A DNA stretch of 58,446 nt from Candidatus Zixiibacteriota bacterium. GTDB taxonomy: Bacteria; Zixibacteria; MSB-5A5; UM-FILTER-46-8. Where the stretch lies: contig WJIJ01000086.1 of the NCBI GenBank assembly GCA_014730345.1, positions 1 to 58,446 of the forward strand, read 5' to 3'. Below the pieces are notes generated by a model that saw only the letters and a program-made list of their open reading frames with translations, was not told the origin of the DNA and did no database searches. A program made the position numbers and the translations under genes. Shown here piece after piece: positions 2,494-50,446 of the stretch; the stretch's first letter is position 1; the number at the start of each line of letters is the position of its first letter.

Positions 2494-2524
2494 AAAGGGC
2501 TGGGGTTAACTCGGCCCTTTTTTA
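2494..2524 (+). terminator. Rho-independent terminator
   Basis: aaagggctgggg-ttaa-ctcggccc followed by a T run just after the 2473 stop. Confidence 0.75.
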
Positions 2525-2599: not shown

Positions 2600-4240
2600 A
2601 TGAAAGTATCTGATTTAATTATTAAATGCCTTGAAACTGAGGGCGTGAAATATATTTTCGGGCTTCCCGGAGAGGAAAACGAAGACCTGATGTTCTCTCT
2701 GGAAGCATCCCCACAGATTAGATTCATACCGGTACGTATGGAACAGGGGGCTTCTTTTATGGCTGATGTATACGGCAGGCTGACCGGAAAAGCCGGAGTA
2801 TGCCTGGCTACCCTGGGGCCCGGCGCGACAAACCTTATAACCGGAGTCGCCGACGCTCATCTGGATAAAGCGCCGCTGGTAGCTATAACAGGGCAGGGCA
2901 GTTCGGACAGGATGCACAAGGAAAGCCACCAGAATCTGGACATTGTCAACATGTTCAAACCGATTACCAAGTGGAACGCCAGCATCCAGAACCCTCACAT
3001 TGTAACCGAGGTGATACGCAAAGCATTTAAACTGGCCGAGATGGAAAAACCGGGGGCGACACATTTCGAACTGCCGGAAGATATCGCCAAGATGGATTGC
3101 GCGCTGAAACCCATTCAGCCCAGGGTTCTGCGGCGGCCGTCGCCGGACTACAAAGCATTGGATTTGGCGGTCAACCTGATTAAAAAGGCCGAGAAGCCGC
3201 TTATATTAGCCGGCAACGGGGCTATACGGAAACTCGCCTCCAAACACCTGCGCCAGTTCGTTTCCCGTACTAATATACCCGTAGTTTCCACATTCATGGG
3301 TAAGGGGGCAATTTCCGACAGTGACGAACATTCGCTTTTTGCGGTAGGATTGCAGGCCCGCGATTATGTCATGCGAGCGCTGGATATGTCGGATTTAATC
3401 ATCACTATCGGTTACGATATCGCCGAATACGCCCCCGAAACATGGAATCCCGATAAGAAGCAGAAGATTGTTCATATTGATTTCTTGCCAGCGGAGGTTT
3501 ACGAATATTACCAGCCGGAAGTCGAAATTGTCTCCGATGTTTCCGGGGCGTTGTGGGACCTGAACCTGGCGGTTAAAAAGGAGAATATAAAGTTCGACCA
3601 TAGTTGGATGCTTCCTATCCGCAAAAAAATCCTCGAAGATTTCGAATCATACCGCCTCGAGGATGGCGGCGAATTCACAGTCCCCGGAGTTCTCCATATC
3701 GTCCGGGAAATCATGAATCCAGGCGATATTCTTATCTCGGATGTGGGCAGTCATAAGGTTTGGATAGGGCGCAACTACCCCGTCTATGAACCGAATTCGG
3801 TAATTATCTCCAATGGGCTGGCCAGTATGGGTATCGCTGTTCCGGGAGGGATAGCCGCCAAACTTGCTTATCCCGAAAAACAGGTGGTTACTATGATGGG
3901 CGACGGCGGTTTCCTTATGAATTCCCAGGAAATCGAGACCGCTAAGCGAATCGGAGTGGGGTACACCATTATCGTATTCAATGATAACGACTACGGTTTG
4001 ATATCATGGAAACAGCATGGTCACACTGGTAAATCATTCGGCACCATGCTAACCAACCCTGACCTGAAAAGGTACGCCGAAAGTTTTGGCATCAAAGGCT
4101 ATGCTCCCGGTAACCTTAACCAGTTGAAAAATAGCCTGCGGGAAGCTATTACCTCGCAGGAATTATCCCTGATAGAAATACCGATTCAACCGAGCGTGAA
4201 TATCGAGTTGAGCAGGAAGCTTGAACAAAATCAAATATAG
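2600..4240 (+). CDS. ThDP-dependent enzyme, acetolactate synthase large subunit family (possible 2-oxoglutarate decarboxylase)
   Basis: FGLPGEEN, EQGASFMA, TLGPGATN, GDGG...N ThDP-binding motif (MGDGGFLMNSQE...FNDNDYG). Confidence 0.9.
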   Translation: MKVSDLIIKCLETEGVKYIFGLPGEENEDLMFSLEASPQIRFIPVRMEQGASFMADVYGRLTGKAGVCLATLGPGATNLITGVADAHLDKAPLVAITGQGSSDRMHKESHQNLDIVNMFKPITKWNASIQNPHIVTEVIRKAFKLAEMEKPGATHFELPEDIAKMDCALKPIQPRVLRRPSPDYKALDLAVNLIKKAEKPLILAGNGAIRKLASKHLRQFVSRTNIPVVSTFMGKGAISDSDEHSLFAVGLQARDYVMRALDMSDLIITIGYDIAEYAPETWNPDKKQKIVHIDFLPAEVYEYYQPEVEIVSDVSGALWDLNLAVKKENIKFDHSWMLPIRKKILEDFESYRLEDGGEFTVPGVLHIVREIMNPGDILISDVGSHKVWIGRNYPVYEPNSVIISNGLASMGIAVPGGIAAKLAYPEKQVVTMMGDGGFLMNSQEIETAKRIGVGYTIIVFNDNDYGLISWKQHGHTGKSFGTMLTNPDLKRYAESFGIKGYAPGNLNQLKNSLREAITSQELSLIEIPIQPSVNIELSRKLEQNQI

Positions 4241-4255
4241 CGAAGGAGTTGTGAT

Positions 4256-5614
4256 ATGAAAGCGATTAATCCGGCAACCGATGAGTTGATTAAAGATTAT
4301 AAAGAGCATACTGACGAACAGGTAAGTGAAATAGTGAAGCAGGCCGATGCCGAATACCGTGCCTGGCGGGAAACATCTTTCTCCCACCGCAGGGGACTGA
4401 TGAAAAAAGCGGCGGAAACCCTGCGTACTAATGTAAATATATATGCCGAAACCATCACCAAAGAAATGGGCAAGACCATCACCGAGTCCCGTGCCGAAGT
4501 CGAAAAATCGGCATGGGTCTGTGACTACTACGCCGACAACGCCGAAAAGTTTTTAGCCGATGAGATAATTGAAACCGATGCCAGTAAAAGCTTCGTGGCT
4601 TTTGAACCTATCGGCGTAGTCTTAGCGGTCATGCCCTGGAACTTTCCCTTCTGGCAGGTCTTCCGCTTCGCCGCCCCAGCGCTCATGGCCGGCAACGCCG
4701 GAGTTCTTAAACACGCGTCCAATGTCCCCGGAAGCGCGCTTGATATCGAGTCGGTATTTAAAGAGGCCGGTTTCCCGGAAAATATCTTCCGCACCCTTTT
4801 AATCCGCGCCGGACAGGTCGAAGCGGTCATCAAAAATGATTTAATTAAAGCGGTAACATTAACCGGAAGTGAACCGGCGGGCATGCAGGTAGCCTCCGTT
4901 GCCGGGGGCGTTCTCAAGAAAACCGTCCTTGAGCTTGGAGGCTCTGATCCGTATATCGTCCTCGACGATGCCGACCTTCCAGCGTGCGTTACCACCAGCG
5001 TGCAGGCGCGGATGATAAACCAGGGGCAGAGTTGTATCGCCGCCAAACGCTTTATCGTAGTTGAACCTCTCGTGAAAGAGTTCGAGCAAAATCAGTTCGA
5101 GATAATGTCCAAACTAAAGGTTGGCGATCCCATGCTGGAGGAAACCCAGGTCGGTCCCATGGCGCGCCTTGACCTGCTTGAAGAACTCGATGAACAAGTG
5201 CAGAAATCGATTAAGATGGGGGCGCGGCTGTTATGCGGCGGTAAGAAGGTCGATGGTCCCGGGGCGTTCTACATGCCAACCGTGCTGGCCGATGTGAAAA
5301 CGGGGATGCCCGCCTGCAAGGAAGAAACTTTCGGCCCCGTATCCGCGATCATTCCGGTTAAGGATGAGGAAGAGGCGATTAAGGTAGCCAATGATTCCGA
5401 GTTCGGTCTCGGCGGAAGCGTTTGGTCGCGTGATGTAGAGCGTGCTGAACGGGTTGCCCGGCAAATTGAAACGGGGGCTGTGTTTGTAAACAGCATGACT
5501 AAGTCCGACCCGAGAATGCCTTTCGGGGGGGTTAAAAAATCCGGTTATGGACGGGAACTTTCCCATTACGGCATAAAGGAATTCGTAAACATCAAGAGCA
5601 TAAGTATAGCGTAA
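4256..5614 (+). CDS. NAD(P)-dependent succinate-semialdehyde dehydrogenase family aldehyde dehydrogenase
   Basis: MPWNFP, LKHAS, TGS, ELGGSDP, catalytic GQSCIA, EETFGP, PFGGVKKSGYGRE; aaggag RBS; 15 nt after the previous gene. Confidence 0.92.
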   Translation: MKAINPATDELIKDYKEHTDEQVSEIVKQADAEYRAWRETSFSHRRGLMKKAAETLRTNVNIYAETITKEMGKTITESRAEVEKSAWVCDYYADNAEKFLADEIIETDASKSFVAFEPIGVVLAVMPWNFPFWQVFRFAAPALMAGNAGVLKHASNVPGSALDIESVFKEAGFPENIFRTLLIRAGQVEAVIKNDLIKAVTLTGSEPAGMQVASVAGGVLKKTVLELGGSDPYIVLDDADLPACVTTSVQARMINQGQSCIAAKRFIVVEPLVKEFEQNQFEIMSKLKVGDPMLEETQVGPMARLDLLEELDEQVQKSIKMGARLLCGGKKVDGPGAFYMPTVLADVKTGMPACKEETFGPVSAIIPVKDEEEAIKVANDSEFGLGGSVWSRDVERAERVARQIETGAVFVNSMTKSDPRMPFGGVKKSGYGRELSHYGIKEFVNIKSISIA

Positions 5615-5634
5615 TAAAGGAAAACACATTAAAT

Positions 5635-5748
5635 ATGTGCCGCCGGGTCAATCCGCCTTGGCGGGCCCTTAGTCGACATGAATACAGGCGTGGTGTCAAA
5701 CGTCTTCGTTTGACACCTTAGGTCAGGCGAGGCCGGCTGACCGCACAT
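5635..5748. repeat. REP/REPIN-like multi-hairpin element
   Basis: Perfect 11-bp stem ggtgtcaaacg/cgtttgacacc (5692-5717) with GTGG at its foot; ggtcag/ctgacc (5721-5742); ccgcc-tt-ggcgg; closing atgtgc/gcacat. Confidence 0.55.
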
Positions 5749-5906
5749 TGTTGATTTACAAAAAATAGGCGTCGTATCCTCGAACGTGACGAAATATTTT
5801 TTAAGAAAACGCGACCGCAAATTGCTATTCCCTTCATTTGAGGAAACCTGCCGCGCAGTTTAATTCGCAAACCAAGCTCTGGATTCTTTGCTATTAAATG
5901 GCAAAC

Positions 5907-5936
5907 AAAAAAGGCTGTCTCGATGACAGCCTTTTT
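5907..5936. terminator. Bidirectional Rho-independent terminator between convergent genes
   Basis: aaaaaggctgtc-tcgat-gacagccttttt, with A and T runs on either side. Confidence 0.85.
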
Positions 5937-5956
5937 CGTTAAATCTGCATAAACTT

Positions 5957-6844
5957 TTAATCCCGGGCTTCGCTCAACTTGTTTACCACTTTTATTTCGA
6001 TAGGGATGGTGAAACGGGAGCCGTATTTATTCTTGGCCTGGAATGTTACCGATTTGCCCATCTTGCCCAATCCAAAAGCCTCGGTATCTACGGTAAACGC
6101 TACTTCAGTGGACTCATCCGGTTTTAGAACTTTTTTATCGATATCAACCTTGATTATATCGGGAAATGGATTGTCGACTATCTGTAATTCCGATTCGGTA
6201 GTGTCGATATTGGTAATGGTCGATTTAAGGACCTCTTTTTCCCCTATGAGAACTTCGTTGACATCGAACATGTCCGGTTCCACCTTGAAATCGCTGTTGG
6301 GAATACCCGCGATAGCCTTAACTGAAATCATTGGATTCTGGTTAGTGGAATCGTTGCAGGTAATCCGCATCTTTTTCATTATCGTCTTTTTATACCTTTT
6401 GGTATGAAAAGTAAAGTCGATAAAATCATGTTCGCCTGGCGGAATAACTATCCCGCGTCTTTTCGTCGTCGTGCATCCTCACGTAGGTTTGATGTTAATT
6501 ATGGTGAGGGTGTCGGTTCCGGTATTGGATACCTTGAAAAGATGGGTTACATTGGTATGTTGCGGAACATTGCCGAAATCGAAAATAGTGTATTCAAGGG
6601 TTATTTTCGAATCGTTCAGGGGAGCATCCGCTTGTTGGGGCGGTCTGCGCCTGATGTTTTTCGGATTTGTTCCCGTGGGAGCGGGTACATATTCTACCGG
6701 CCGTCCGTCTTCGTTGCGTTTCGGCCCCCAATACTGCTTATCATCTTTATTAGAATCGGTATCCGGTGTAAATTGACTTTGAGCCGGCGTGAAAAGAATA
6801 AGGCCGGTTATAGCTGAGAATAACAATATTTTTAGTATTTTCAT
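5957..6844 (-). CDS. Exported DUF1573-domain protein with in-frame TGA, probable selenoprotein (T-U-G-C, Sec at codon 122)
   Basis: Track ORFs 6479..6850 and 5957..6379 are in one frame with only TGA 6481-6479 between them. Read-through gives INIKPT-U-GCTTTKRRGIVIPPGEHDFIDFTFHTKRYKKTIMKKMRITCND, matching the DUF1573 CGC motif. AGGAG 9 nt before ATG 6844; signal peptide. Confidence 0.8.
6439..6456 (-). promoter_or_regulatory. Candidate bacterial SECIS hairpin
   Basis: mRNA +23..+40 after UGA: GCGGGAU-AGUU-AUUCCGC, a 7-bp stem whose loop has G in second position. Confidence 0.55.
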
Positions 6845-7008: not shown

Positions 7009-8055
7009 TTATTCCGGGGTATCAAAAGAGGAATCAGCCAGCGCCCCGAAAGCATAAGCAATTTCGTATGGATTCCAATCCTGATCGAAAAGGGCTAAGT
7101 AGTGTCCCGGATGAGAAACCTCCTCCGGCATTTTTACCTGGGTCCAGATGGCGAATTTCGCTCCCATTTCAGCGACTGAGCTGTATAAAGGATAAACATA
7201 TTCAACCTTAGCCGCGTTGAATTCCTCGAAATTATCATAGTTCTCCACTTTGGGCCATGTGCATTCGCTAAGCGCTAATTCCTTGCTCCGGTCAACATCC
7301 CAAAGCGCGTTTATAGGTATGCTCGGATCATAATGACCGTTAATGTGAACATCCCATATATCGAATTTACAATCCTTTAATTGTTCGCCCCAATCGGCTA
7401 TATCGGCTGAAGGAGCCAACCCGCATAAAATTACCTGGGCTTTGGGATCCAACTCCTTCACGATATCATAAAACATATCTGTCAGCGTCTTTAATTCTTC
7501 AACAGTGCCGTTCCAGTGGCCGTAATCCTCGTACCTCATAGGGAATGTGTTTGGCTCATTGATCAACTGGTAGTATTTTACCCTGCTCGCGGTTTGCCTG
7601 ACCATAAATTCCATGGCGGTCCGAAAATCAGCGGTATCCACAGGGGGCCAGCTTCCCTTTGTATAATAATTTATCTCCGGATGACCGGTCATCCATCCCC
7701 GGCTTATAGTTAAATGGAGCATAATATCGATGTGTTCTGGAATTTCATTGAGCCTGTTTTTTATCACCATGCTGTCCAACTGCCCCCGCTCCCGCTCGAA
7801 ATCAAGCCAGTTAGCGAATAACCTTACAACTTCCGGTTTTACTATATCCAGCCAGTAATCGGAAATTTCAATACGGCGCGGTATCCATACCCCTCTTTTA
7901 AAGGAATTTTCACTGGTTGTAAGGGTGGTATCCGGTTCATTGATTGTAATATCATCATTGTTTGTTCCCGGTTCGGTTCCCTTGTTTTTACCGCAACCCA
8001 TTAATGAATAACAGATTAGAATTACCATAAAGAATAAACATATTGTTCTTTTCAT
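7009..8055 (-). CDS. Lipoprotein with clan GH-A (beta/alpha)8 glycoside hydrolase domain
   Basis: Lipobox LMG-C; YYQLINEP acid/base motif; LALSEC nucleophile-like motif; aggagg RBS. Confidence 0.72.
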   Translation of the reverse strand: MKRTICLFFMVILICYSLMGCGKNKGTEPGTNNDDITINEPDTTLTTSENSFKRGVWIPRRIEISDYWLDIVKPEVVRLFANWLDFERERGQLDSMVIKNRLNEIPEHIDIMLHLTISRGWMTGHPEINYYTKGSWPPVDTADFRTAMEFMVRQTASRVKYYQLINEPNTFPMRYEDYGHWNGTVEELKTLTDMFYDIVKELDPKAQVILCGLAPSADIADWGEQLKDCKFDIWDVHINGHYDPSIPINALWDVDRSKELALSECTWPKVENYDNFEEFNAAKVEYVYPLYSSVAEMGAKFAIWTQVKMPEEVSHPGHYLALFDQDWNPYEIAYAFGALADSSFDTPE

Positions 8056-13906: not shown

Positions 13907-15946
13907 ATGGCAACCGGTAAATCTATGTTCGGGGACCTTTTTTATTCCGGTCCGGACGAGGAGATTCTCGCGGCTCCCGAGGTTAATGAAAATTACGAGA
14001 CCAATGTTAGCCATTTATATGTAATCGGCGACCTGACCGGGGTGCCGCTGTTAAAAAACGCGGTTAATATGGGGCAGGAATTAATTGAGAAGATTGGCGA
14101 TGAGCTTAAAGCTGAAGAGGTTGATGAAGATACATATCACCTTTTAATCGTAGGCGCAGGCGGGGCGGGGTTAGCCGCGGGGCTTGCCGCCCAGGAGAAG
14201 GGATTGAAATATATTGTGCTCGAACAGAAAAAACCGGGCAACACGATTAATAACTTCTTCAAGGGTAAGGAAATCTACACCGAGCCGAAAAATATGCCCA
14301 ATAAATCGAAACTCTGGGTGCGGGATTCCCGGAAGGAAGAACTCCTTGGGCATTGGGAAAAGATAATCGATGACGCCGATTTGAATATCAAAACCGGCGA
14401 CCAGATGAAGGTTACCGGGATACGCAGGCAAAACGATGGATTTATCGTCGAAACGTTGAAATCCGAATATCGCGCCAACAGGGTAGTACTGGCCATGGGA
14501 CGTTCGGGTAATCCCCGGATGCTCAGAGTTCCCGGCGAAGGGCTTGATAAGGTACATCATGTTCTCGTTGATCCCGAAGAATATACCGGGGAGAAAATCG
14601 CGGTGGTGGGAGCGGGCGATTCGGCTTTGGAAGCGGTAATAGCGTTAGCGCCCCATAACGACGTTTGCCTGGTAATACGTTCCGGGGAAATCACCAAAGC
14701 CCAGAAGGATAATAGAGACAAAGTCATGCAGTTGGTCGATTCGGGGAAGGTGGAGATCTTTGCCAATTCCAATGCCAAGGAAATCCGCCCCTATGAGATA
14801 GTAATTGATGTGGACGGTGAAGAGCGGATTATAGAAAACGACCATGTTTTTAGCCTCATTGGCGCTATCCCTCCCGATGGGTTTTTAAAGAAGATGGGTA
14901 TACGGAAACTGGGTGATTGGAGCTTCAAAAAGGTGTTATTTCTGGCGGGGATGACCGCGCTGGTGTTTTTTATCTATGCATGGAAAGCTCAAAAATTCTG
15001 GATTTTCACCCCTGACAGCGCCCTTTACTCATGGACATCATGGCGTCCATCCATGTGGTTTGGTGTCCTCTACAGCATTGTTATTACCGGCTTTGGTATA
15101 AAAGCTATCTATCGTTATCGTAATGATTCATACCAGGTAAAAAGGTACATTGCGTTAATTCTATCTCAGGTCATTCTGTTCTGGCTTATCCCTGAGATAA
15201 TTTTTCAAACGCTTTACCCTGTACATGATGGCTGGCGGGCGTATGGGCTTTTCTACCCGGCTCCACTGTACGTATGGAATTTCTGGGCTCCAATGAACGC
15301 GCATATCTTCTGGTTCGCGTGGTCCATTTTAATCTCGGTAATAGGGATACCGATTGTAGCCAGGATATGGGGCAAAAAGTATTGCTCTTATGTATGCTCC
15401 TGCGGGGGACTCGCCGAAACCCTCGGCGATAAATACCGTGTTCTTTCCCCGAGGGGCCGGAGGGCGAGGGCATGGGAGAACCTGTTGACATATTTTATTC
15501 TCCTATGCGTTGGCACGGTTGTCCTTTTCGGGTTGCTGGATAAAAATTCGGGATGGTGGTCGTTCCAGGCGCTGGTTATCGATTTCGCCATTGCCGGGGT
15601 TATCGGGATAGCCTCTTATCCATTCTGGGGCAACCGTATCTGGTGCAGGTTCGGATGTCCGCTGGCAAAATTATATTACATATTCGCCAAGGATAATTCT
15701 GATGTGAAAATATCATCGGGACAGCACTGTATACGGTGCACTCTTTGCTCCAAGTACTGCCAGATGGGTATCCAGGTTATGGAGTTCGCCAAGCGCAACC
15801 AGGATTTCTCCAATAAGAACAGTTCTTGTATCCAGTGCGGAATCTGCATAACCGTGTGTCCGACCCGTAATCTCCAGCATGGCGATTGGTCGGAGGAGAA
15901 ATGGAAGGAAGAGATTGAAAAGGGACCTCCCATTAACGTAGTATAA
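13907..15946 (+). CDS. FAD/NAD(P)-binding TrxR/YpdA-like oxidoreductase fused to a NapH/YccM-like polytopic 4Fe-4S membrane domain
   Basis: IVGAGGAG and VVGAGDSA Rossmann motifs; several TM segments; CSYVCSCG and WCRFGCP motifs; CIRCTLCSKYC and CIQCGICITVCP ferredoxin motifs. Confidence 0.85.
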   Translation: MATGKSMFGDLFYSGPDEEILAAPEVNENYETNVSHLYVIGDLTGVPLLKNAVNMGQELIEKIGDELKAEEVDEDTYHLLIVGAGGAGLAAGLAAQEKGLKYIVLEQKKPGNTINNFFKGKEIYTEPKNMPNKSKLWVRDSRKEELLGHWEKIIDDADLNIKTGDQMKVTGIRRQNDGFIVETLKSEYRANRVVLAMGRSGNPRMLRVPGEGLDKVHHVLVDPEEYTGEKIAVVGAGDSALEAVIALAPHNDVCLVIRSGEITKAQKDNRDKVMQLVDSGKVEIFANSNAKEIRPYEIVIDVDGEERIIENDHVFSLIGAIPPDGFLKKMGIRKLGDWSFKKVLFLAGMTALVFFIYAWKAQKFWIFTPDSALYSWTSWRPSMWFGVLYSIVITGFGIKAIYRYRNDSYQVKRYIALILSQVILFWLIPEIIFQTLYPVHDGWRAYGLFYPAPLYVWNFWAPMNAHIFWFAWSILISVIGIPIVARIWGKKYCSYVCSCGGLAETLGDKYRVLSPRGRRARAWENLLTYFILLCVGTVVLFGLLDKNSGWWSFQALVIDFAIAGVIGIASYPFWGNRIWCRFGCPLAKLYYIFAKDNSDVKISSGQHCIRCTLCSKYCQMGIQVMEFAKRNQDFSNKNSSCIQCGICITVCPTRNLQHGDWSEEKWKEEIEKGPPINVV

Positions 15947-31625: not shown

Positions 31626-33209
31626 ATGTCTCAAAAGAATAGCTTGTTATTATTCATCATGCTGATGCTAATATCGGGTTTAGTCCCTCAATCGTGGGGC
31701 GTGACGGCTGACCACGGCAAGTTTCCGATTTTAAAGCAAGAATTTAAAACCGGGCCCGAAGTTACCCGGGCATGCCTTAGTTGTCACACAGAATCGGCAA
31801 AGCAGGTGCATAAAACTATACACTGGACCTGGGTATGCCCCAAATCGTTCGATCCCCAGCTGGGCAAATCAATCGTGGTCAATAATTTCTGTATTGCTCT
31901 TCCATCTAACGAGCCGAGGTGCACCAGTTGCCATGCCGGGTACGGATGGCGTGACAGTACCTTCGATTTCACATCCGAGGAGAATGTTGACTGTTTAGTA
32001 TGCCACGACCAGACCGGGGAATATCAAAAATTTCCCACCGGCGCGGGGCATCCCGCCTACGAGGTGAAAACATTCGGCGGCAAAAAGTATTTCCCCCCTG
32101 ATTTTAACAAGATAGCCCGGAACGTTGGTAAACCGAGCCGGCATAACTGTGGAGTATGCCATTTTTACGGCGGCGGGGGAGAGGGAGTTAAGCATGCCGA
32201 CCTCGATGAATCCCTTGAAAATCCGCGCAGGGAACTGGATGTTCACATGGCCCGCGACGGCCTCAATTATCAGTGTATCGATTGCCACCGGAGCAGAGAT
32301 CATGAGATCGCCGGGCGTTGTTATTCGGTGCCTGCCGCCGAAAGGAGGGAGTTCGCGCTTCCCAAAGATAGCGGACTGCGTATCGCCTGCGAATCCTGCC
32401 ACAGTGCCGCACCACATGAAAACAACGATAAATTAAACGACCACACCGACCGCGTCGCCTGCCAGACATGCCATATACCGTATGCCGCCCGCGAAAAAGC
32501 CACCAAGCATTGGTGGGACTGGTCGAAAGCAGGCGAGTTCGATGAAAATGGGGAAATGATTGTTAAAAAGGATGAACATGGAAATATAACCTATCATACC
32601 ATGAAAGGCGAATTCGCCTGGTCGAAAAATATGATTCCGGAATATTACTGGTTCAATGGCGGCGCGAACCATACCCTTGTTACCGATAAGGTTGACCCTG
32701 CCAAGCCGGTGGAGATCAACAGCCTTAAGGGCGATGAAGATGATCCGGATTCGAGGATATACCCGGTTAAAGTTCACAGGGGCAAGCAGGTTTACGACCC
32801 TGTGAATGAAACCCTGATAATACCCAAACTTTTCGGCCCTAAAGGCTCTGGAGCGTACTGGAAGGATTTCGATTGGGTTAAATCCGCCGAAAAGGGAATG
32901 GAATATGTCGGACTGCCTTTCAGCGGAGAGGTCGGTTTCGTGGAGACCGCTATGTACTGGCCTATTACCCACATGGTCGCTCCCAAGGAACACGCGCTAA
33001 AATGTAATGAATGTCACGCCGAAAACGGCAGGTTGGCCAGCCTGGGCGGTTTTTACATGCCCGGCCGTGATGATTTCGCCGCCCTGGATATAATTGGTTG
33101 GGTGATGGTTGGTTTAACTTTTCTCGGAGTTCTCGGACATGGTTTACTCAGGTTAACTTTTAACAACCGGCATGATGACATCGACGATTCGGAGGATAAG
33201 AATGAGTAA
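31626..33209 (+). CDS. otr: Octaheme c-type cytochrome, tetrathionate reductase (OTR) family
   Basis: Eight CxxCH motifs (CLSCH, CTSCH, CLVCH, CGVCH, CIDCH, CESCH, CQTCH, CNECH); GK...NNFC active-site segment; signal peptide and C-terminal TM anchor. Confidence 0.92.
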   Translation: MSQKNSLLLFIMLMLISGLVPQSWGVTADHGKFPILKQEFKTGPEVTRACLSCHTESAKQVHKTIHWTWVCPKSFDPQLGKSIVVNNFCIALPSNEPRCTSCHAGYGWRDSTFDFTSEENVDCLVCHDQTGEYQKFPTGAGHPAYEVKTFGGKKYFPPDFNKIARNVGKPSRHNCGVCHFYGGGGEGVKHADLDESLENPRRELDVHMARDGLNYQCIDCHRSRDHEIAGRCYSVPAAERREFALPKDSGLRIACESCHSAAPHENNDKLNDHTDRVACQTCHIPYAAREKATKHWWDWSKAGEFDENGEMIVKKDEHGNITYHTMKGEFAWSKNMIPEYYWFNGGANHTLVTDKVDPAKPVEINSLKGDEDDPDSRIYPVKVHRGKQVYDPVNETLIIPKLFGPKGSGAYWKDFDWVKSAEKGMEYVGLPFSGEVGFVETAMYWPITHMVAPKEHALKCNECHAENGRLASLGGFYMPGRDDFAALDIIGWVMVGLTFLGVLGHGLLRLTFNNRHDDIDDSEDKNE

Positions 33210-49174: not shown

Positions 49175-50446
49175 TTAAGTTAAACCGTGCGGGAATTCGA
49201 GCGGTTTGACCGGGATAGTTACGCTTCTCTTACCAGTATCATCCGGTGGATTGATGGTTAATTTTCCCGCGCTCTCACCCATGATGTAAATTTCGATTTT
49301 CTCCGGTTCGCCGGCATAGAAAGTGATTCCTTCATAATTCGGCGGCACATCTACAGGTCCGTTAGTGCCTTTTATATTAATGCGATAAGCGCCCTCTGAA
49401 ACTTTCTCGCTATCCCAAACTAAATACTTGTTGGTATAATGGTAATTGAGCATACGGGAAGTGGTGGTTATCCAGATTCTTTCGGATTCCTGCCGGGATT
49501 TTAGCTCGCGGAAACGTTTGCAGAGTTCAGTATCGAAAATTTGCCCATCCTCCCGTTCAAGCGGTTGACCGAAATGGGTGTAAATTATCATGGTTCCCCG
49601 GTTTCTTTCGAGTTTGTCGAGGACTTCAGTTGAGAGTTGTTTTTTCAGGATATCGCGGTTAGGCGGGAAATTAATATTGCCGTAACTGTAGCAGTAACGG
49701 GTAAATTCCATCAATAACTGTCTATCCCGAAGACGGCGCGGGCGCATCAACTCATTTCCGAAAACTTTGCGGATTTTATGTTTTCTACCGATAAGGTATT
49801 TTATCAGACTTTTAACCAGGTGCTCGGTCTTAAATTTAAAATAATCCATATCCCCGAGGTTTAAACTCCTGTCCTGTCCGACCACCGCGGTTAAATCGCA
49901 TCCCCAGTAAAAATAAATGCCAAGGTTTTCGATGGTAAGGTCGCTATGATATGCTTCACTTTCAGGGTCATCCCCATACGCCTCAATAAGCTGGCACAAC
50001 AGATTTTGCCGGTTATAATTATCGCCATGGTTTATATAGGTATCGAATTTAATGCCGTCTTTTGCCAGCCGGTCCAGTGCCGTTTCGGCGAGTTTTCGTT
50101 CGAAATATGCGGGGTCTGGAGGATTTTCCCATCTGGAAAAATTCCCGTAGGAATGGAAGCAGTCGATATATCCCGCTTCGATAAGCTCTTTGAGGATTGG
50201 GGCGTGCGGCGATTTCCCGGCAGATAAACCATTGAAATACGTTACTTCATAGGGGAGAAGCGAATAGCACCAGAACGTTTCCCCTATTTCCAGCCCGAGC
50301 CCCTCTCCCATCGGTGTGGATTGAGTTGAATTAAGATACTGCCTTATCGCAAGGAAATCATCGATTCTCAGATTATCGAGATCATTGGCAATGGTTAAGG
50401 CCGCCCTGTAACGGTATGGGAATTTCCTTAGACTTATCAGGTTCAT
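49175..50446 (-). CDS. Hypothetical protein in the polysaccharide operon, possibly deacetylase-like (beta/alpha) barrel
   Basis: 423-aa ORF translationally coupled to wzx (ATGA); IANDLD, CFHSYG, YINHG, IYTHFG suggest metal-binding Asp/His residues. Confidence 0.6.
   Translation of the reverse strand: MNLISLRKFPYRYRAALTIANDLDNLRIDDFLAIRQYLNSTQSTPMGEGLGLEIGETFWCYSLLPYEVTYFNGLSAGKSPHAPILKELIEAGYIDCFHSYGNFSRWENPPDPAYFERKLAETALDRLAKDGIKFDTYINHGDNYNRQNLLCQLIEAYGDDPESEAYHSDLTIENLGIYFYWGCDLTAVVGQDRSLNLGDMDYFKFKTEHLVKSLIKYLIGRKHKIRKVFGNELMRPRRLRDRQLLMEFTRYCYSYGNINFPPNRDILKKQLSTEVLDKLERNRGTMIIYTHFGQPLEREDGQIFDTELCKRFRELKSRQESERIWITTTSRMLNYHYTNKYLVWDSEKVSEGAYRINIKGTNGPVDVPPNYEGITFYAGEPEKIEIYIMGESAGKLTINPPDDTGKRSVTIPVKPLEFPHGLT

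Follow-up and report, generated by a model that had tools for sequence, protein, structure and literature searches.

A gene pair resembling the cyanobacterial OgdA/SsaD 2-oxoglutarate shunt in a Zixibacteria genome

The stretch of DNA analysed here (the window, 58,446 nucleotides, contig WJIJ01000086.1) is contig C203 of a 3.58-Mb metagenome-assembled genome (MAG) of a Candidatus Zixiibacteriota bacterium, 92.7% complete in 204 contigs. It carries two adjacent genes on one strand, the first for a thiamine diphosphate (ThDP)-dependent enzyme resembling acetolactate synthase (ALS) and the second for a predicted succinic semialdehyde dehydrogenase (SSADH). An earlier interpretation made from the letters alone (the sequence-only reading) had likened them to the decarboxylase and dehydrogenase with which cyanobacteria bypass 2-oxoglutarate dehydrogenase. 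The pair is probably an OgdA/SsaD-type 2-oxoglutarate decarboxylase/SSADH shunt of the cyanobacterial kind. It is placed there, away from AlsS and IlvB, because of family models, phylogeny, the active-site residues of both enzymes and synteny across phyla.

The gene pair and its boundaries

The sequence-only reading had described a 546-aa ALS-like gene 15 nt upstream of a 452-aa SSADH-family gene, and the two open reading frames (ORFs) lie exactly as it placed them (Table 1). The first product contains the Pfam domains TPP_enzyme_N, TPP_enzyme_M and TPP_enzyme_C, and the second matches Aldedh with 473 bits. The ATG of the ogdA-like gene is preceded at 5 nt by GAGGGA, and its reading frame ends in TAG at 4238-4240. 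Since the spacer between the genes contains no terminator, the two are presumably co-transcribed. The statement that no ilv or small-subunit gene lies nearby holds for the whole window, where neither these nor genes of the tricarboxylic acid (TCA) cycle were found elsewhere.

Terminator-like hairpins flank the pair. The upstream hairpin closes the gene of an Lcl_C protein sorted or secreted by the type IX secretion system (T9SS) and forms the 5' boundary of the operon. The downstream one is probably a two-way terminator, common to the pair and the convergent gene at 5957-6379 (− strand), and would mark the 3' boundary. As far as sequence features indicate, the pair looks like a stand-alone bicistron between these hairpins. 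A scan for sigma-70 promoters returned sites no more frequent than in shuffled sequences and none immediately 5' of position 2600.

The 340-nt tail 3' of the SSADH gene (window 5615-5945) holds a row of hairpins and folds much better than shuffled sequences (z −4.8). A 44-nt piece of it (about 5682-5725) is repeated on contig C38 (6688-6731) with 89% identity. Either a structured 3' untranslated region or a small repeat element may lie here. An Rfam scan of the window gave zero families at threshold.

Table 1. Features of the ogdA-like/ssaD-like locus in window coordinates
Feature	Coordinates	Strand	Description
ogdA-like gene	2600-4240	+	546-aa ThDP-dependent enzyme, PRK08322/NF006187 family; putative 2-oxoglutarate decarboxylase
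intergenic spacer	4241-4255	+	15 nt with AAGGAG ribosome-binding site; no terminator
ssaD-like gene	4256-5614	+	452-aa SSADH of the SsaD/Sad type; predicted NADP preference
terminator-like hairpin and T-run	2494-2520	+	11-bp stem with 6 GC pairs, then TTTTATTG
hairpin GGCTGTC-TCGAT-GACAGCC	5913-5936	.	A-run and T-run on the flanks; based on sequence and fold

Family placement, active-site residues and synteny

The ThDP enzyme scores 701 bits on the NCBIfam model NF006187/PRK08322, above the cut-off of 509, and falls under the cut-offs of the AlsS models NF006378 (471 versus 510 bits) and TIGR02418 (430 versus 551) and of the IlvB model TIGR00118 (371 versus 538). NF006187 carries the name "acetolactate synthase large subunit", and its top scorers are cyanobacterial OgdA-like proteins (859-874 bits for the three scored). 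These comparators, which are inferred orthologues of OgdA/KGD, come from genomes of Trichodesmium, Chlorogloeopsis, Calothrix, Pseudanabaena and Baaleninema that were reached via their 16S pattern and searched with the window protein. Each of the five genomes holds a single PRK08322-type homologue, 48-51% identical to the window enzyme (563-589 bits), and the second homologue is IlvB-like, with about 32% identity. The closest homologues of the ThDP gene lie in Candidatus Zixiibacteriota MAGs (75-79% identity), all labelled acetolactate synthase.

A maximum-likelihood tree of 43 sequences (LG+C20+F+G4 PMSF; support as UFBoot/SH-aLRT) gathers all PRK08322-type proteins, the window enzyme and the cyanobacterial OgdA-like proteins included, into one clade (95/88). 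AlsS, represented by three sequences that each exceed the NF006378 cut-off, is sister to this clade, its stem measuring 2.8 changes per site; outside both stand IlvB/IlvI (100/100). Within the PRK08322 clade, the cyanobacterial subclade also holds Nitrospirota-type sequences, an Ignavibacteriales-labelled MAG and a different Zixibacteria-class genome. The window protein stands in a 23-row subclade that spans Zixibacteria, Marinimicrobia, Phycisphaerae, Halobacteria, Balneolota, Omnitrophota, Planctomycetes, Bacteroidota and a gammaproteobacterial MAG. The tree favours membership in the cyanobacterial OgdA family without proving it.

The motifs that the sequence-only reading named as common to the cyanobacterial enzymes are borne out by the alignment. 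The window enzyme has FGLPGEEN at residue 20, DRMHKESHQ at 103 and ISDVGSHK at 379, and the five cyanobacterial proteins have FGLPGEEN (5/5), DRMHIESHQ (4/5) and SDVGAHK (5/5). AlsS and IlvB/IlvI differ at the three sites, FGLPGEEN and H-x-ESHQ being specific to the family.

The residues assigned to substrate and cofactor are conserved as well. In the Microcystis 2-oxoglutarate decarboxylase (KGD), Val382, Ala408, Leu467, Gln254, Lys386 and Lys471 are reported to contact 2-oxoglutarate (2-OG), and His385, Met410, Asp435, Asp462, Tyr465 and Glu50 to contact ThDP (PMC10418658). All 12 of these listed contacts are kept in the alignment with the window enzyme, with identical numbering from Val382 through Lys471; Gln254 corresponds to window residue 252 and Glu50 to 48. 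Two positions separate the families sharply. Position 386 is Lys in the window enzyme, Tyr in AlsS and Gln in IlvB/IlvI, while position 471 is Lys, Gln and Trp, respectively. A role in holding the distal carboxylate has been proposed for these two family-specific lysines. The cyanobacterial KGDs accept 2-OG alone as substrate, and pyruvate is not decarboxylated by them (PMC10418658).

The partner dehydrogenase leads to the same systems. Its best match in the PDB is the SSADH of Synechococcus sp. PCC 7002 (4it9, 3vz1-3; 506 bits), with weaker matches to Sad/YneI (415-427 bits) and E. coli GabD (283 bits). Residue roles were taken from PMC7510979, in Synechococcus 7002 numbering, and mapped by ungapped alignment. 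The catalytic Cys262, Glu228 and Asn131 are kept as window Cys260, Glu226 and Asn129, the contacts to the carboxylate of succinic semialdehyde (SSA), Trp135, Arg139 and Ser419, as Trp133, Arg137 and Ser417, and the determinants of NADP preference, Lys154 and Ser157, as Lys152 and Ser155. The protein reaches no NCBIfam SSADH equivalog cut-off, the best being NF006915 with 582 versus 730 bits. A cyanobacterial SsaD-like protein (locus L206) also falls below that cut-off (671 versus 730) with an identical order of hits, and the model is therefore too narrow to decide.

The pairing itself is conserved over a wide range of organisms. Synteny was surveyed in 80 loci retrieved with the ThDP protein and in the five cyanobacterial genomes. 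In almost every Zixibacteria locus of sufficient extent, the gene directly downstream is of the SsaD type (52-79% identical), and the same arrangement occurs in Marinimicrobia, Phycisphaerae, Balneolota, Omnitrophota, Planctomycetales, Bacteroidota and a gammaproteobacterial MAG. Halobacteria have the SsaD-type gene directly upstream of the ThDP gene, and in three of the five cyanobacterial genomes the ThDP homologue adjoins an SsaD-type dehydrogenase. Adjacency of the pair extends over at least nine phyla. The ThDP gene of Nitrosocosmicus-type archaea has no SsaD-type neighbour. In three family members (L049:5729-7084, L075:5719-7062 and L224 [G024]) the neighbour is an aldehyde dehydrogenase (ALDH) resembling lactaldehyde dehydrogenase and GapN, only 28-30% identical to SsaD. 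This neighbour, found in one PRK08322 branch, points to another aldehyde or to a variant of the module.

Host metabolism and competing functions

In the predicted chemistry, the ThDP enzyme would convert 2-oxoglutarate into succinic semialdehyde and CO2 without oxidation, and the partner dehydrogenase would oxidise the semialdehyde to succinate with formation of NAD(P)H, probably NADPH. Neither step would need CoA or ferredoxin, and no ATP would be formed. The analysis establishes how the genes are built and placed, which residues their products keep and what the genome contains; substrate, product, co-transcription and physiological role are inferred.

The host genome provides a second route between the same metabolites. 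A search of it for reaction-centre genes of type I and type II found none, which agrees with the non-phototrophic host assumed in the sequence-only reading. Nor was sucA found, a gene present in one of the 26 Zixibacteria-class genomes sampled (the host and 25 relatives); an E1ab/E2 complex lies on contig C181. Contig C137 (4199-9419, − strand) carries the tight cluster sucC-sucD-korA-korB-korC, with korABC directly downstream of sucCD, a predicted operon for succinyl-CoA synthetase and 2-oxoglutarate:ferredoxin oxidoreductase (KOR). KOR-type alpha subunits occur in all 26 class genomes, and KOR was reported for the first Zixibacteria genome (Castelle et al. 2013, PMC3903129). The host also has pyruvate:ferredoxin oxidoreductase and a VOR-like enzyme, citrate synthase-like and SdhAB-like genes, cytochrome bd and a haem-copper oxidase. 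With korABC-sucCD present, the shunt would run parallel to KOR and succinyl-CoA synthetase and fills no gap in the TCA cycle. The earlier proposal of a 2-oxoglutarate bypass is supported by models, tree, residues and synteny, with the shunt as a parallel route and not the sole link between 2-oxoglutarate and succinate. The genome check for sucAB and korAB that it named gave a divided answer: no sucA was found, as fits a bypass, and korABC lies beside sucCD.

Several observations weigh against an OgdA/SsaD shunt, and the redundancy just described is one of them: the route is unnecessary for closing the cycle. The 23-row subclade of the window protein (100/100) is sister to the cyanobacterial subclade and not within it, and has no characterised member. 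An approximately unbiased (AU) test does not reject a grouping of the window subclade with AlsS (delta lnL 5.6, p 0.24). The phylogeny against OgdA, AlsS and IlvB that the sequence-only reading proposed consequently sets the enzyme within the PRK08322 clade and apart from IlvB, and separates it less firmly from AlsS. The cyanobacterial comparators are presumed orthologues of the characterised A2770, Sll1981 and MAE_06010, and the contacts of the Microcystis enzyme (MaKGD) rest on mutagenesis and on docking into an AlphaFold model rather than on a crystal structure (PMC10418658). Among solved structures, catabolic acetolactate synthases come closest (327-358 bits), since the PDB holds no OgdA structure. 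Finally, a family with two types of ALDH partner may not have one single substrate.

This last point leads to the strongest alternative, in which the same decarboxylase/dehydrogenase design serves a different 2-oxoacid, for example 2-oxoadipate, which would yield glutarate by way of glutarate semialdehyde, or some other 2-oxoacid that is dicarboxylic or substituted. Besides the different ALDH type beside some family members, it draws on a window subclade whose members are uncharacterised and share only about 50% identity with the cyanobacterial enzymes, and on the replacement of Gln254 by Gly, Pro or Thr in other lineages of that subclade. The Zixibacteria clade, however, keeps every listed 2-OG contact, Gln254 included. 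Its partner keeps Trp135, Arg139 and Ser419, which hold the C4 carboxylate of succinic semialdehyde, and shares 53-58% identity with the SsaD-like neighbours in cyanobacteria. A different substrate is unlikely for the window pair.

It is quite improbable that the ThDP enzyme is instead an acetolactate synthase, whether catabolic and AlsS-like or the sole anabolic acetohydroxyacid synthase (AHAS) feeding IlvC, with a functionally unrelated dehydrogenase beside it. Every database name reads "acetolactate synthase large subunit", and AlsS/BudB (NF006378, TIGR02418; PDB 1ozf, 4rjj) shares with the window enzyme the three-domain ThDP fold and the lack of a regulatory subunit, besides being its sister clade and closest structure. 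The AU test does not reject that grouping (p 0.24). At the substrate site, by contrast, the window enzyme has FGLPGEEN where AlsS has FGIPGAK, HKESHQ in place of LKRTHQ, and Lys386/Lys471, as in KGD, in place of Tyr/Gln. It is under both AlsS cut-offs, its operon partner is an SSADH, and alsD (PF03306) was not found in the host genome. IlvB/IlvI with IlvN/IlvH are members of the ThDP superfamily about 27-32% identical to the window protein. They form a separate clade (100/100), have Gln/Trp at positions 386/471, and set a model cut-off of 538 bits against the 371 reached; the window pair lacks their small subunit. The kept pairing with an SsaD-type dehydrogenase across phyla and the failure of characterised family members to use pyruvate argue against either form of acetolactate synthase.

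The argument from IlvC has a similar outcome. The only ilv gene found in the host is ilvC, on another contig (C118:69-1055). A tblastn search of the 92.7%-complete genome for ilvH gave no hit, and no second ALS-family gene was found there, so that the window gene is the only one of its family in an ilvC-bearing genome. Across the class sample, ilvC is above cut-off in 22 of 26 genomes and the PRK08322 enzyme is present in only five. True IlvB was found in none (0/26), and in 17 genomes, including several with 98-100% completeness, the ALS family of ThDP enzymes is not represented at all. Since ilvC mostly occurs without the PRK08322 enzyme or any ALS-family protein, it is independent of the enzyme and provides no argument for an AHAS role.

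Highly improbable is a carboligase that, in the manner of 2-hydroxy-3-oxoadipate synthase or MenD, would use the ThDP-bound succinic-semialdehyde carbanion and release no free aldehyde: the sister group AlsS is a carboligase and mycobacterial Kgd, initially named a decarboxylase, turned out to have such chemistry (mentioned in PMC10418658), but the tightly coupled SSADH with intact SSA-binding residues suggests a free aldehyde product, and cyanobacterial family members release SSA in vitro. The SucA-like mycobacterial enzyme is similar only in its nominal 2-oxoglutarate reaction. It belongs to an unrelated ThDP family, of the 2-oxoglutarate dehydrogenase E1 type, and no such gene was found in the host genome.

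The OgdA/SsaD bypass of cyanobacteria is the known system that the window pair resembles most in its parts. OgdA (2-oxoglutarate decarboxylase, SynPCC7002_A2770) and SsaD (SSADH, A2771), together with Sll1981 and MaKGD MAE_06010, match both protein families of the window. The two genes lie side by side on the same strand, the 2-OG, ThDP, SSA and NADP contacts are kept, there is no small subunit, and the host has no sucA that could be found. The order ogdA-ssaD is that of PCC 7002 and is reversed in the three cyanobacterial loci examined and in Halobacteria. The differences lie in the host, a non-phototrophic Zixibacteria MAG, in a ThDP enzyme about 50% identical and from a sister subclade, and in the korABC-sucCD that makes the route redundant.

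The GABA shunt likewise bypasses 2-oxoglutarate dehydrogenase and delivers succinic semialdehyde to an SSADH, by way of glutamate decarboxylase, GABA aminotransferase and GabD. The window SSADH is instead of the SsaD/Sad type (506 bits to SsaD versus 283 to E. coli GabD); a closer GabD match than this protein was found elsewhere in the host, on contig C8. No glutamate decarboxylase was found in the host genome. On contig C161 (7939-11706, + strand), a GabT-like class III aminotransferase gene immediately precedes a second sucC/sucD-like pair, which is 39-51% identical to E. coli SucCD and whose sucC is under the TIGR01016 cut-off.

The presence of two routes raises the question of their use with and without oxygen. 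Running as a second route between 2-oxoglutarate and succinate, the OgdA/SsaD shunt would trade ATP and reduced ferredoxin for NADPH and would be independent of CoA and of Fe-S enzymes. We offer it only tentatively as an oxygen-proof alternative to the oxygen-sensitive KOR in facultatively aerobic Zixibacteria. Under anoxic conditions the cell would rely on KOR and succinyl-CoA synthetase, gaining reduced ferredoxin and ATP, and under oxygen or oxidative stress would switch to OgdA/SsaD, gaining NADPH with neither CoA nor an Fe-S enzyme. A haem-copper oxidase is present in five of five class genomes with the ThDP enzyme and in 12 of 21 without it, a difference that is not significant among genomes related to one another. 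If this idea is true, the module would serve KOR-based TCA cycles as a portable "aerobic patch", which would explain its patchy spread across phyla.

The occurrence of such a pair in a non-phototroph, which the sequence-only reading had put forward, is supported for Zixibacteria and is not new. According to the summary given in PMC12214013, Zhang and Bryant (2011) had noted closely related pairs in some methanogens and anaerobic bacteria. No description of the pair in Zixibacteria turned up in a literature search. The finding matters mainly for annotation and metabolic reconstruction, as a correction of the widespread label "acetolactate synthase large subunit"; it reveals no new kind of biology. 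The name of NF006187 is probably wrong for the family. Names read acetolactate synthase though the model scores OgdA-like proteins highest, and annotation pipelines therefore credit genomes with a branched-chain amino-acid step that is perhaps absent. In Zixibacteria, Marinimicrobia, Balneolota, Planctomycetes, Halobacteria and others, a TCA route through succinic semialdehyde would at the same time be missed.

The rest of the window

The remaining window encodes glycosyltransferases, T9SS-secreted proteins, HtpG, a multihaem cytochrome, a methyl-accepting chemotaxis protein, a PAS-LuxR regulator and a sugar-modification cluster. Two ORFs have no Pfam match, one of 348 aa (7009-8055, − strand), which also has no NCBIfam match, and one of 423 aa (49175-50446, − strand). 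Between glycosyltransferase genes at 13907-15946 (+ strand) lies the gene of a 679-aa fusion of pyridine-nucleotide-disulphide oxidoreductase and 4Fe-4S dicluster domains. The multihaem cytochrome c (527 aa; 31626-33209, + strand) is encoded amid T9SS-secreted proteins and matches Cytochrome_cB with 246 bits, with weak hints of likeness to MtrC/MtrF and to c3/c7 cytochromes.

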